Origin: an uncultured bacterium
Lineage (GTDB): Bacteria; Krumholzibacteriota; Krumholzibacteriia; Krumholzibacteriales; Krumholzibacteriaceae
Assembly: GCA_963813815.1 (NCBI GenBank)
Contig: CAWFAD010000007.1
Span: forward strand, 224,001-288,000
DNA: 64,000 bases
Direction of reading: 5' to 3'
Under the pieces are notes generated by a model that saw only the letters and a program-made list of their open reading frames with translations, had not been told where the DNA came from and searched no databases. Made by a program: the position numbers and the translations under genes. Below are positions 5,300-8,211 of the stretch, one piece after another. The first letter of the stretch is position 1. Each line of letters opens with the position of its first letter.

Positions 5300-5346
5300 A
5301 CGGCGCGCCGGCGCGCGGCTCGAACCGCGGCCGGCCGGCGGAACAG

Positions 5347-5775
5347 ATGATACACCGGATAGGACTCGCGGCGCTCGTCGCCGGGCTCGCCGCCCAGTTG
5401 CTCAAGCCCTTCGTGGACGCGCTCCGCACGAAACGCTTCAATCCGCTGCGCGTGCTGGACACCGGCGGCATGCCGAGCTCGCATTCGGCGGTCGTCACGG
5501 CGCTCACGGTCGGCGTCGCCGTCTATCAGGGAGTCGCCTCGCCGCTTTTCGCCGTTTCGCTCGTCATGGGCCTCTACTTCGTCTTCGAGGCGACGGGGCT
5601 CCGGCAGGAGGTCGGCAATCAGGCGCGGGTCCTGAACGAGATCGTGGAGCGGCTCACGGTGAGCCACACGCACCACGTCGCTCCCGAAGAGCTGCGCGAG
5701 CTCATCGGACACACCTGGATCGAGGTCATCGCGGGGGTTGCCGTCGGCGTTCTCGTCGTGCTCGTCATGTACTGA
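5347..5775 (+). CDS. DUF212 divergent PAP2 family membrane protein
   Basis: AQLLK, TGGMPSSHSA, GLRQEVGNQA, LRELIGHT.IEV motifs. Alternative GTG start at 5296 overlaps the upstream stop. Confidence 0.88.
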   Translation: MIHRIGLAALVAGLAAQLLKPFVDALRTKRFNPLRVLDTGGMPSSHSAVVTALTVGVAVYQGVASPLFAVSLVMGLYFVFEATGLRQEVGNQARVLNEIVERLTVSHTHHVAPEELRELIGHTWIEVIAGVAVGVLVVLVMY

Positions 5776-5826: not shown

Positions 5827-5856
5827 TTGACAGCCCGCCGCCGAGGTGGCCAGAAT
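5827..5856 (+). promoter_or_regulatory. Putative sigma70 promoter of the parA-CBM48 operon
   Basis: TTGACA 5827-5832, 18-nt spacer, CAGAAT 5851-5856. Confidence 0.5.
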
Positions 5857-5900: not shown

Positions 5901-5937
5901 GGCCAGATCATCGGGGATGATGTGGCCTTTTTTGTTT
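5901..5937 (+). terminator. Intrinsic terminator-like hairpin in the parA leader
   Basis: GGCCA-G-ATCATC / GATGAT-G-TGGCC stem followed by TTTTTTGTTT. Confidence 0.6.
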
Positions 5938-5980: not shown

Positions 5981-7054
5981 ATGAGAGTCATCGCTATCAT
6001 AAACCAGAAGGGGGGATGCGGTAAAACAACCGTCGCCGTCAACCTCGCGGCCGCATTCCGGGAGCTCGGGCGGAAGGTGCTCCTCGTCGATCTCGATCCG
6101 CAGGCGCACGCTTCGCTCGCCCTGAACGTCACGGCCGACGAAGTGGAGACGACGACCTACGACCTTCTCACCGATCCCCGCGTCAAGATCGCGGACGTGG
6201 CGGCGAAAGTCGACGGGGGTCTCTTCATCGTCCCCTCCTCGCCGGTTCTGAGCGCCTTCGAGCAGGAGCTCGCGGGCAAGCCGGGGCGCGAGAGCCGGCT
6301 GCTGGCGAAGCTCTCCCGCAATCCCGGCGACTACGATTACATCGTCATCGATTCTCCGCCGAGCATAGGGCTTTTGACCTTCAACGCCCTCATGGCCTCC
6401 GGCGAGGTCGTGATCCCGGTCGATCCGAGCTACTTTTCCGTTCAAGGGCTCGAAAAGCTGAGCGAGACGCTCGCGCTCCTCGAGCGCGAGACGAAGCACT
6501 CGATGACCGTGCACGTCCTCATGAGCAACGTCGAGCGCCGGACGGCCTTCAGCCGCGAGATCCTCGCCGAGGTCGAGCGCGAGTACGGATCGGTCATGCT
6601 GAGGACCATCGTCAGCCACTCCGTGCGGTACAAGGAGGCGGCCTATCGCGGCATGCCAATCTTCGGCATGAAGCACGTCGATCAGCTCCGCGAGGAGTTT
6701 CTCGCGCTCGCCGGAGAGCTCGAGTCCCGGGGCGCGACGCTCGCGGTGAAGAACCTCGACGAGTGGATGGTGCGCCTCCACGGACCCCGCCGCGTCGCCG
6801 AGGGCATCCTCTTCGTGCTGAACGCTCCGAACGCCCGCAACGTCTATCTCACCGGCGAGTTCACCAACTGGTCGAGCGAGGGGATCCGGATGGAGAAGGA
6901 CGAGCGCGCCGGGCTCTGGAAGGCCGTGTTGCACCTCGAGCCCGGAGAGTACGAGTACCGCTTTATCCTCGACGGCGTCTGGATCAAGGATCCCGACAAC
7001 ACCGATTCGGTCCTGAACGAGTTCGGCCAGGAAAACTCGCTCCTCATCGTGTAG
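5981..7054 (+). CDS. ParA/Soj-family ATPase fused to a C-terminal CBM48/AMPK-beta-type glycogen-binding domain
   Basis: Deviant Walker A KGGCGKTT, A' LLVDLDPQ, Walker B YIVIDSPP. C-terminal ~90 aa (about 6782-7051): VYLTGEFTNW...W...LEPGEYEYRFILDGVWIKDPDN...NEFGQENS. Confidence 0.9.
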   Translation: MRVIAIINQKGGCGKTTVAVNLAAAFRELGRKVLLVDLDPQAHASLALNVTADEVETTTYDLLTDPRVKIADVAAKVDGGLFIVPSSPVLSAFEQELAGKPGRESRLLAKLSRNPGDYDYIVIDSPPSIGLLTFNALMASGEVVIPVDPSYFSVQGLEKLSETLALLERETKHSMTVHVLMSNVERRTAFSREILAEVEREYGSVMLRTIVSHSVRYKEAAYRGMPIFGMKHVDQLREEFLALAGELESRGATLAVKNLDEWMVRLHGPRRVAEGILFVLNAPNARNVYLTGEFTNWSSEGIRMEKDERAGLWKAVLHLEPGEYEYRFILDGVWIKDPDNTDSVLNEFGQENSLLIV

Positions 7055-7058
7055 TCCT

Positions 7059-7853
7059 ATGGCAACGCGACGCCAACCCCGCACGCTGCAGCAGGTCTCC
7101 CATCTCTTCCTGTCGTCGGGAGCGGACGCGGCGGAGCGCGGGCGGGCCCGGGCGGAGGGGATCGTGTGGATCGTGGCCGCCGGCAGGTCGGCGAACCGGG
7201 CGCATCTCGCCGCGGGTGCCGCGGCGGCTCTCGCCCGGCAGAACACGGCCGTATCGGTGTGCGAGCTCTCCGGCAATCTCCCCAACGTCGGATACTATTT
7301 CGGTCTCGAGCCGGCCGACTATCTCGCCACCGCCATCGATCGAAAGGCGCTCGTGACCGGGACGTGGAACGGCTCCGTGCGCTTCGCCTCCTCTCCGACG
7401 GGGGCGTCGCTCGCCTCCTACGGCGGGGTCGAGCCGCAGCGGGAACGGCCGCACGTCGTCGTCGCGGCGGCGACGGCCGCCGGGGGATCGGTTTCGCGCC
7501 TCTCGGAGGTCCTCGAGTCCTTCCTCGGGGCGTTCTCCTTGCGGGCGCGCGAGGGCCCCGCGAGGCCCGATGCGATCCTCGTCGCCTCGGGGGAGGAAGC
7601 GGGGATGCGCGAGCGGGAGATGGCGGAAGTCCTTCGGGCAAGGCAGCCCGAAGCCCTGCTCCTGTTTCTGGGGCGCGCCGCCGCTCCCCGCCCCCTCTGG
7701 GCGGACGAGCGTTTCGTCCTTCCGGATGATCTCGCTCGGACGTCCCATCGCCGCTCGCCTCCCGAGTCGCCATGGTTCGGCGAGCTCGCCGCGTTCCTCG
7801 TGCAACGGCTCGGCTCGCGCCGAAGGAGGAGCGCCGGTGCGGTCAACGAATAG
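7059..7853 (+). CDS. Degenerate MinD/FlhG/ParA-like protein (probable pseudo-ATPase)
   Basis: Starts 4 nt after the parA stop. IVWIVAAGRSANRAHLAAGAAAALARQNTAVSVCELSGNLPNVGYYFG follows the beta1/P-loop/helix/beta2/'DLGLPN' pattern of MinD/FlhG but lacks GKT. Confidence 0.6.
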   Translation: MATRRQPRTLQQVSHLFLSSGADAAERGRARAEGIVWIVAAGRSANRAHLAAGAAAALARQNTAVSVCELSGNLPNVGYYFGLEPADYLATAIDRKALVTGTWNGSVRFASSPTGASLASYGGVEPQRERPHVVVAAATAAGGSVSRLSEVLESFLGAFSLRAREGPARPDAILVASGEEAGMREREMAEVLRARQPEALLLFLGRAAAPRPLWADERFVLPDDLARTSHRRSPPESPWFGELAAFLVQRLGSRRRRSAGAVNE

Positions 7854-8211
7854 CTCTTCCGCGGGAGCGGCGGCGATCCTCGTCCTCGGTAGGCGGATCG
7901 CGGCGCCGGAGCCTCGCCGCCTGTTCGCGGCGTTCTGCCGCGAGGTGTCGCGGTTTTCGGATTCGATGCGGACGGAGGTTGCGCCGTTCGACATCACGTT
8001 CCGGGACGCCGCGGATTTTTCGATCACCGTCTCGCCGCTTCGCGATCTCTTCATCGTCTCCCTCGGCGAGGACCGCTCTTCGGACATCAGGGTATCCTCT
8101 CGCGAGAGCTTCTGCTTCGCGCTCGACAGCGCGCTGCGGCGGCGTCTCGCCGCCACGGCCGGGGGCGAGAGCGCCCGCGGCCTGCCGATCGACCCGGCCC
8201 GCTCGGAGTGA
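7837..8211 (+). CDS. Small hypothetical protein (124 aa), weakly DUF5655/YjbR-like
   Basis: Strong RBS AAGGAGGA at 7823-7830, GTG at 7837 in the 7570..8211 frame, overlapping the upstream stop. Confidence 0.6.
   Translation: MRSTNSSSAGAAAILVLGRRIAAPEPRRLFAAFCREVSRFSDSMRTEVAPFDITFRDAADFSITVSPLRDLFIVSLGEDRSSDIRVSSRESFCFALDSALRRRLAATAGGESARGLPIDPARSE

Follow-up and report, generated by a model that had tools for sequence, protein, structure and literature searches.

The window analysed here is a 64,000-nt stretch of DNA from an uncultured member of the Krumholzibacteriota (contig CAWFAD010000007.1 of GenBank assembly GCA_963813815.1, positions 224,001 to 288,000, forward strand). Three adjacent genes at window positions 5981-8211, on the forward strand, are referred to as the unit, and the first of these (gene 1) encodes a ParA-type ATPase fused to a CBM48 carbohydrate-binding module (CBM). 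In this phylum, the genes form a real, ancient and vertically inherited three-gene unit. Its inheritance pattern fits a housekeeping link between glycogen and the chromosome better than immunity, the role predicted for this type of gene set in a preprint by Li, Burroughs and Aravind (bioRxiv 10.64898/2026.10.19.760177). The architecture is already in print, and what is new is evidence that contradicts the published immune reading in this phylum.

Distribution and inheritance of the unit

The phylum was surveyed in 151 Krumholzibacteriota genomes; the genome to which the window belongs (G000) is 91 % complete. The fusion is full or nearly full in 109 of the 151 and is frameshifted or cut by a contig end in three more, making 112 carriers. 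The unit is nearly always present as a single copy. A first-pass annotation of the window, made from the sequence alone, had proposed a survey of linkage with the two downstream genes, and the linkage proved to be conserved: of the 81 phylum loci with enough room downstream, 72 have a gene 2 match and 57 a gene 3 match. Eight of the nine loci missing gene 2 have an adjacent open reading frame with a similar N-terminal helix, as judged by eye. In a quick tree of 81 phylum copies of the fusion and 10 outer rows, gene 1 copies group by host family, with 10 label changes, the minimum for 11 groups, compared with 58 when the labels were shuffled. The unit also holds its place among housekeeping genes in the phylum.

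In genus g26, the unit has been lost as a block. Here, a DUF212 gene directly precedes the lipoprotein gene that normally follows gene 3 in nine of the 10 loci fetched (one of the 10 is cut by a contig end, and homology was judged by eye). Four loci in family f4 show a similar block deletion, and genome G125 retains a remnant of genes 2 and 3. The gene 2 profile gave no strong match in any phylum genome without gene 1. The DUF212 (divergent PAP2) gene lies upstream of the unit, at about 5340-5775 in the window, and is syntenic across the phylum. It was considered as a further member of the unit and rejected, because it persists in loci that have lost the three genes and, in other phyla, does not neighbour the fusion.

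Outside the phylum, among the 80 of 592 stretches that were listed, the fusion was found in records labelled as Omnitrophota, Planctomycetota, Desulfobacterota and other deltaproteobacteria, Eisenbacteria, Spirochaetaceae and Margulisiibacteriota. Loci labelled as planctomycete (L157, L181, L189 and others) have a long acidic linker of 80-150 aa between the ParA and CBM parts, and often no adjacent partner gene.

Association with glycogen genes

The glycogen gene set of G000 consists of glgA, three glgC-like genes, a GH57 branching enzyme and a phosphorylase, with no GH13. Two of the three glgC-like genes (L064-L066; C8 and C5) are in tandem. Of the 151 phylum genomes, 111 have a glgA match and 114 a glgC match. 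A search for other routes in all 34 genomes with neither gene showed that four have a CBM48-GT4-GH57-GlgP cluster, which from its gene set was taken as a putative glycogen pathway.

The co-occurrence with glycogen genes that the first-pass annotation expected was borne out in part. The unit and a glycogen pathway are both present in 103 genomes, 18 have glycogen genes only and 21 have neither, while nine have only the unit (odds ratio 13; as related genomes are not independent, the p-value of this tie is overstated). The unit has been lost more often where glycogen genes are missing, and is absent from 21 of the 30 glycogen-negative genomes; five of these 21 have a phosphorylase or GH13 match. 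Frequent absence of glycogen synthesis from fusion-bearing genomes had been named in advance as something that would refute a role in glycogen, and this applies in part: in nine of the 112 carriers no known pathway was found, and the CBM is still under purifying selection.

The same tie is seen within smaller groups. In genus g26, the unit is present in the one genome (1/1) with the GT4/GH57/GlgP cluster versus 0/11 without it, and in family f4 it is present in 6/6 glgAC-positive versus 0/4 negative genomes. In G029, gene 1 is directly upstream of a CBM48-GT4-GT4-GH57 branching enzyme-GlgP-GH57-MalQ-GlgX cluster. This cluster (L111:6066-17990), in families without glgA and glgC, is likely to be an ADP-glucose-independent glycogen route. 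In other phyla, a GH57 enzyme, branching enzyme or GlgB is within 6 kb of the fusion in eight of 62 loci, six of these representing one related arrangement, and all five genomes checked have a GT5-family match (two strong, three weak).

The ParA-CBM48 fusion

Gene 1 (5981..7054, + strand; 357 aa) consists of a Soj/ParA-type ATPase (approximately residues 1-250), a short linker and an AMPK-beta-type CBM48 (approximately residues 270-357; 6785..7051, + strand). The fusion had first been recognized from the ParA motifs KGGCGKTT, DLDPQ and IDSPP and the CBM48 motifs GEFTNW, YRFILDGVW and GQENS, all of which are present in the translation. The profile search suggested at that stage, for the ParA family and AMPK1_CBM, confirmed both parts, with Pfam cut-offs exceeded for AAA_31 (E 2e-49, residues 1-176) and AMPK1_CBM (E 8e-13, residues 284-355), as well as for CBM_48 (E 2e-8). 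The nearest solved relatives are Myxococcus xanthus ParA (8RAY; E 2e-40) for the ParA part and the glycogen-binding domains of AMPK beta subunits (E 7e-9) for the tail. The fusion is not a chance one, as coverage extends over the full protein in all but two of the 120 best relatives listed, and full-length fusions recur through the phylum.

Residues were compared in an alignment of 143 copies of gene 1, 81 from the phylum and 62 from other phyla. Two duplicates, two truncated copies, same-phylum loci from the outer set and three sequences without a CBM part were left out. K10, G11, G12, K15, D37, D39, Q41 and D124, which make up the Walker A, DxDxQ and Walker B motifs, are invariant (143/143). 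Of the basic residues to which DNA binding had been ascribed in the first-pass annotation, in VERRT and SVRY, both motifs are present and R187 is conserved (78/81), but R186 is variable. Over the whole alignment, R or K is found at position 187 in 140/143 copies and at 216 in 137/143. R216 aligns with R238 of M. xanthus ParA, and replacement of R238 with Glu abolishes non-specific DNA binding (PMC12462528). Judged by its sequence, gene 1 has the basic residues used by ParA proteins for non-specific DNA binding. Of the pocket in M. xanthus ParA that receives the ParB arginine (Y81, E82, D110 and E117), the first two residues are well kept, E117 is partly kept and D110 is not; the equivalents of Y81, E82 and E117 are Y60, D61 and E96. 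His43 (window 6107-6109) replaces the ParA motif-2 Asn (Asn64 in M. xanthus) in 142/143 copies and, on this conservation, is a family signature.

In the tail, W297, R327, W334, F348, G349, Q350 and N352 align with W100, K126, W133, L146, G147, T148 and N150 of AMPK-beta1, of which L146, T148 and N150 are presumably also sugar contacts. W297 and W334 are invariant (143/143), and R or K is found at 327 in 140/143. Mutation of W100, W133 or K126 in AMPK abolishes or weakens glycogen binding, and G147 matters too (PMC6274970). By alignment and profile, the tail has both the family score and the sugar-contact residues of a CBM48 domain. Among the five AMPK1_CBM proteins encoded by the genome, the product of gene 1 is the only one without a signal-peptide-like N-terminus (by eye).

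The absence of parB and parS from the neighbourhood, as first reported, was upheld. No parB is found among the flanking genes scanned, and only two parS-like sites were detected in the genome (up to 2 mismatches from the consensus allowed), both on contig C16 beside a canonical parA-parB pair. Gene 1 is therefore an additional ParA.

The partner genes

The two partner genes follow with a 4-nt gap and a 17-nt overlap, as originally described. Neither has a family in Pfam or NCBIfam, and both evolve fast. Gene 2 (7059..7853, + strand; 264 aa) appears from profile and model to encode a degenerate protein of the MinD/FleN fold. Its profile matches FleN 5j1j (E 1.7e-7), and its model (predicted local distance difference test score, pLDDT, 89) resembles MinD, FlhG and FleN (TM-score about 0.5). 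In the ESM Atlas, only unnamed or ParA-like clusters were found for it. The Walker A motif KGGxGK is present in none of 56 gene 2 members, and gene 2 is therefore classed as a pseudo-ATPase.

The best conserved stretch of gene 2 is an N-terminal peptide (7059..7115, + strand), R-x-L-x-x-V-S-H-L-F-L-S in the window and L/I-R-D-I-S-H-L-F-L-S as a consensus. R8 falls at the position of the ParB arginine; R or K occupies this position in 31 of 53 phylum members and is within three residues of it in 40 of 53. On this conservation, the peptide is a candidate ParB-like activator of the ATPase. In other phyla, it is encoded just downstream of the fusion, on the same strand, in 20 of 62 loci, and seven of those read LGRGL before it; LGRGL is also present in the ParB of G000. 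Prediction of a complex between gene 2 and the gene 1 dimer (residues 1-260, with ATP and Mg) scored 0.01 against a mark of 0.32 and was not used as evidence.

Gene 3 (7837..8211, + strand; 124 aa, GTG start) is predicted by model and profile to be an alpha/beta protein with a YdhG/frataxin/YjbR-like fold. The best match of the model (pLDDT 88.6) is the YdhG-like 9t2w (Z 8.2, root-mean-square deviation 4.2, 101 residues aligned), and CyaY scores Z 7.0. As modelled, the fold is a common arrangement and gives no functional clue. No restriction endonuclease (REase) fold rose above the other matches, the scores for PvuRts1I (Z 5.6) and AbaSI (Z 5.3) being within background. None of 52 gene 3 members fell below E 0.03 in the family search, and the ESM Atlas gave no usable match. 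The gene 3 profile matches residues about 202-314, the C-terminal part of approximately 100 residues, in the 335-350-aa third genes of another lineage (L148-L150; E 1e-8 to 3e-5). On these profile matches, the longer third genes of other lineages contain, as their C-terminal domain, a homologue of gene 3.

Relation to the published prediction

The first-pass annotation knew of no characterized system of this kind. This holds for experimental work, as none was found in the literature, but the architecture had already been described computationally, as an immune system, in the preprint (bioRxiv 10.64898/2026.10.19.760177). As listed there, the ParA-CBM gene set comprises a ParA-AMPK1_CBM protein, a second, inactive ParA and an inactive REase, and the grounds given for immunity are sporadic spread and a fast-diverging CBM. 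In the terms of the preprint's passages on this system, the window unit is the second variant (ConB5) with the third gene shortened. Both consist of a ParA with a C-terminal AMPK1_CBM, a fast-evolving inactive ParA-like gene and a third gene, and gene 3 is joined to such third genes by profile. Unlike in ConB5, the third gene of the window is reduced to the C-terminal YdhG/frataxin-like domain (124 aa versus 335-350 aa), so that the inactive REase domain by which ConB5 is defined is not found in gene 3. We note that the REase assignment of the N-terminal part of the longer third genes comes from the preprint and from inspection by eye, and that Pfam finds nothing there. The ParB-like peptide, the co-loss with glycogen genes and the leader terminator described below do not appear in the preprint's passages on ConB5.

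The two accounts also differ in distribution, the unit being near-core and vertically inherited in this phylum rather than sporadic. Nor is the CBM fast-diverging here: identity in the phylum is 0.54 for the CBM versus 0.50 for ParA, compared with 0.42 for the CBM versus 0.50 for ParA in other phyla. In this phylum, the grounds given for immunity fail: the CBM is as conserved as ParA, PADLOC finds nothing specific, and the unit is near-core, inherited vertically and keeps a fixed place among housekeeping genes.

Proposed role

Bacterial glycogen is thought to be placed passively. In Escherichia coli, glycogen bodies accumulate at the old pole, where they push the nucleoid aside and make division uneven (PMC12706056), so a need for glycogen positioning exists. 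We propose, as the likeliest reading and with a confidence that falls just short of an even balance, that the unit may be a housekeeping, ATP-switched tether or positioner between glycogen (alpha-glucan) and the nucleoid. Anatomy, conservation, vertical inheritance, block deletion and the statistical tie to glycogen genes are established here, and the mechanistic steps are all ones that we infer. Going by its conserved motifs, gene 1 would dimerise on ATP and bind DNA non-specifically via R187, R216 and K218. The two CBM48 tails of each dimer, given their conserved residues, would grip glycogen particles and so tether glycogen to the nucleoid, as PhaM does for polyhydroxybutyrate (PHB) granules, but switchably. 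The N-terminal peptide of gene 2 would stimulate hydrolysis as the ParB peptide does, releasing the tether, and glycogen bodies would be spread along, or passed between, sister nucleoids instead of piling up at one pole. Gene 3 might, more speculatively, localise or regulate gene 2. A bolder form of this proposal is that the unit represents the first ATP-driven positioning of a storage polysaccharide, in which ParA would grip glycogen directly and walk or spread it over the nucleoid with a pseudo-ATPase as activator, a system that would be ancestral to the whole uncultured phylum, would occur in at least six further phyla and would have been mistaken for immunity in the one paper that lists it. 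We regard this as possible, though on the unlikely side.

Several observations weigh against a tether or positioner for glycogen. In known systems the activator, not the ATPase, is on the cargo, so directed movement would need a further asymmetry. No glycogen gene is adjacent in most loci, including this window, and 18 glycogen-positive genomes are without the unit. G029 carries gene 1 without a gene 2 match, and in other phyla the partner peptide closely follows the fusion in only 20 of 62 loci. Several of the double-negative genomes are small, so the co-loss may partly reflect genome reduction. The nine carriers without a pathway (8 genera, 83-96 % complete) have no match for glgA, glgC, GH57 branching enzyme, GlgP, GlgB, GT3 or GH13, the sole exception being a GT4 fragment in G079, beside its second copy of the unit, and five of the nine, tested further, are also without GlgE, GH77 and GH57. 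In these carriers, the key residues of the CBM are all intact except in one G079 copy, and the proportion of non-synonymous differences (pN) is about 0.10 at a saturated synonymous proportion (pS) of 0.64-0.91. Relaxed selection on the CBM in glycogen-negative lineages was looked for and, with the exception of one G079 copy, not seen; at equal ParA identity, CBM identity is 0.71 in glycogen-negative versus 0.68 in glycogen-positive genomes. It is unlikely that all nine pathway gaps are due to binning loss. The nine mean either that the unit outlasts recent losses, or that there is an unknown glucan route, or that the ligand is other than glycogen.

Alternative explanations

If the unit were an anti-phage or anti-selfish-element system, the CBM would sense an infection-linked carbohydrate, or the depletion of a polysaccharide, and trigger ParA multimers that block the invader. 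The preprint describes this gene set, gene 3 is homologous to the C-terminus of third genes of the preprint's type, genes 2 and 3 are fast-evolving and, outside the phylum, the CBM is less conserved than ParA; sensing of glycogen depletion would also yield a tie to glycogen genes. However, the unit is present in 112 of 151 genomes, nearly always as a single copy, and tracks host families, its place among housekeeping genes is kept, and within the phylum the CBM is as conserved as ParA. The GC content of gene 1 (0.64) matches that of the genome (0.655), PADLOC matches are confined to gene 1, where they are weak and of a generic P-loop kind, and the window unit lacks the REase-like domain and has no effector. 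We consider immunity very improbable. In a literature search, no paper proposing a glycogen-positioning role for a ParA-CBM unit was found.

Two further explanations retain a link to carbohydrate. In eukaryotes AMPK reads glycogen, and by analogy the unit could be a sensor of glycogen state, with glycogen sequestering the ATPase as a sink or platform, and the FleN-like pseudo-ATPase and gene 3 relaying the output to the cell cycle or transcription. Sequestration would fit with a cargo-binding domain that is on the ATPase itself. By profile, the nearest match of gene 2 is the anti-activator FleN, the leader terminator suggests low, tightly regulated expression, and CBM48 is also used in anti-sigma-like proteins of the phylum beside extracytoplasmic function (ECF) sigma factors. 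AMPK is inhibited through its CBM (PMC6274970). Against this, the unit has no conserved neighbour that is a regulator or target gene, and the DNA-contact residues and ParB-like peptide are typical of positioning systems; we think a sensor doubtful. The nine glycogen-negative carriers weigh against a sensor too, and are the main ground for supposing that the CBM has another ligand (short malto-oligosaccharides, another cytoplasmic glucoside polymer or a partner surface), which the unit would position or sense, the tie to glycogen genes being indirect. Three points favour such a ligand: the CBM is under purifying selection in these nine genomes, which have no known alpha-glucan enzymes and among which three genera (G035, G060 and G139) form a clade; CBM identity is no lower than in glycogen-positive genomes; and exported CBM48 proteins are retained in glycogen-negative genomes. 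However, carriers and non-carriers of the glycogen cluster interleave in families f7 and f9, and the second copy in G079 adjoins the GT4 fragment, so glycogen losses may be recent and the unit may lag behind them. An unrecognized GT4 route is possible in the negatives, and most glycogen-negative genomes do lack the unit. We judge a different ligand to be unlikely, though the nine carriers could be a sign of an alpha-glucan route or a ligand not yet known.

The choice between the published immune prediction and a housekeeping role is decidable by one experiment. The three proteins of the unit are small, soluble and amenable to testing in E. coli, and whether ATP is spent on glycogen placement becomes directly addressable.

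Comparison with known systems

Gene 1 shares with chromosomal ParABS (M. xanthus ParA 8RAY and the Soj proteins of Thermus thermophilus and Helicobacter pylori) the deviant Walker A with a preceding Asn, DxDxQ, the DNA-contact arginines and part of the ParB-arginine pocket. It differs in having no parB or parS at the locus, His43 for Asn64, no conserved equivalent of D110 and a CBM48 tail, and its partner is a pseudo-ATPase where that of ParABS is a CTPase clamp. In the overviews PMC10241942 and PMC13052382, the positioning systems McdAB, ParC and PomXYZ resemble the unit in that the ParA is additional to the canonical one, the partner has a charged N-terminal peptide and the matrix is likely the nucleoid. 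However, the sole recognisable ligand module of the unit is on the ATPase and not on a separate adaptor, and the cargo would be a polysaccharide. Adjacency to cargo genes, a trait of McdAB-type systems, is not seen in the window but is seen in G029, at the second copy in G079 (a fragment) and in the eight of 62 loci of other phyla noted above. The main text of the two overviews contains no occurrence of the word 'glycogen', and no ParA/MinD system with a polysaccharide cargo appears in them. Whether the placement of storage granules ever spends ATP is listed as an open question in PMC13052382.

The tethers PhaM, PhaF, PhaH and AlgP, as covered in PMC13052382, are similar in that one protein joins a storage polymer to non-specific DNA, as gene 1 is proposed to do. 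Unlike the unit, they have no ATPase and their cargo is PHB or polyphosphate; the overview lists the ATP dependence of such tethers as unknown. The tail of gene 1 keeps the equivalents of W100, K126, W133 and G147 of AMPK beta subunits, but is attached to a bacterial SIMIBI ATPase, mostly has Arg in place of K126 and is a predicted binder. A different link to glycogen, GlgC on carboxysomes, is described in PMC13506006.

Promoter and leader

A candidate sigma-70-type promoter of the unit (TTGACA, 18 nt, CAGAAT) is at 5827..5856 on the + strand (2 sites found versus 0.1 expected in shuffles), and TTGAC is present within 300 nt upstream of gene 1 in 82/82 loci. Between the promoter and gene 1, at 5901..5933 (+ strand), is an intrinsic-terminator-like hairpin with a T-run, for which attenuator or small-RNA end are candidate roles. 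The hairpin was found in 40 of 46 loci in families f1, f2, f3, f7 and f9 versus one of 36 in other families; as a control, such a hairpin precedes 20 of 278 genes in G000. Two-sided changes are seen in 10 of 11 stem pairs (19 copies, picked by hand because the hairpin was visible), and the hairpin moves along with the relocated copies in G029 and G079. Since it often leaves too little space for a second promoter, expression of gene 1 probably depends on read-through.

The leader spacer measures about 66 nt in the genus of the window and 130-195 nt in related families, its sequence is not conserved, and both spacer and hairpin are gone in two loci (L025 and L035). A known riboswitch was rejected, as no Rfam match came near the gathering score, as was a CsrB-type RNA (129 GGA observed versus 109 expected; csrA in one of five genomes, and not in G000). 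A conserved antiterminator was sought over 41 leaders, with a mean z of about 0. The best fold of the window leader pairs its 5' end with the left arm of the hairpin, at low frequency (z -0.5). No conserved leader peptide was found, the frames varying among relatives (by eye).

Other CBM48, GH57 and ParA-type loci

G000 has four exported CBM48 proteins (L041:11421-14185 and L043:7548-10253), namely two small lipoproteins, a 646-aa protein and a 902-aa MGH1-like hydrolase, and similar exported sets persist in genomes without a glycogen pathway. In two loci from glycogen-negative genomes (L298:1858-5710 and L299:2784-6693), the gene for an ECF sigma factor precedes those for an anti-sigma-like membrane protein that carries a CBM48 and for another CBM48 protein. 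From their gene content, these loci are a candidate pathway for sensing external alpha-glucan.

An operon on contig C16 of G000 (L113:6920-12361) consists of DUF4912, a GH57 branching enzyme and a GH57/DUF3536 gene. The N-terminus of the DUF4912 protein resembles, by eye, what we take to be a Rho-N-type nucleic-acid-binding helix pair, and may represent a second link between nucleic acid and glycogen. A DUF4912/GH57 cluster adjoins the fusion in L158. A third ParA-type ATPase of G000, on C12 (L042:7101-14165), shares its operon with a large anti-sigma/SpoIIE/STAS fusion and with genes for a TPR protein and two STAS-like proteins.

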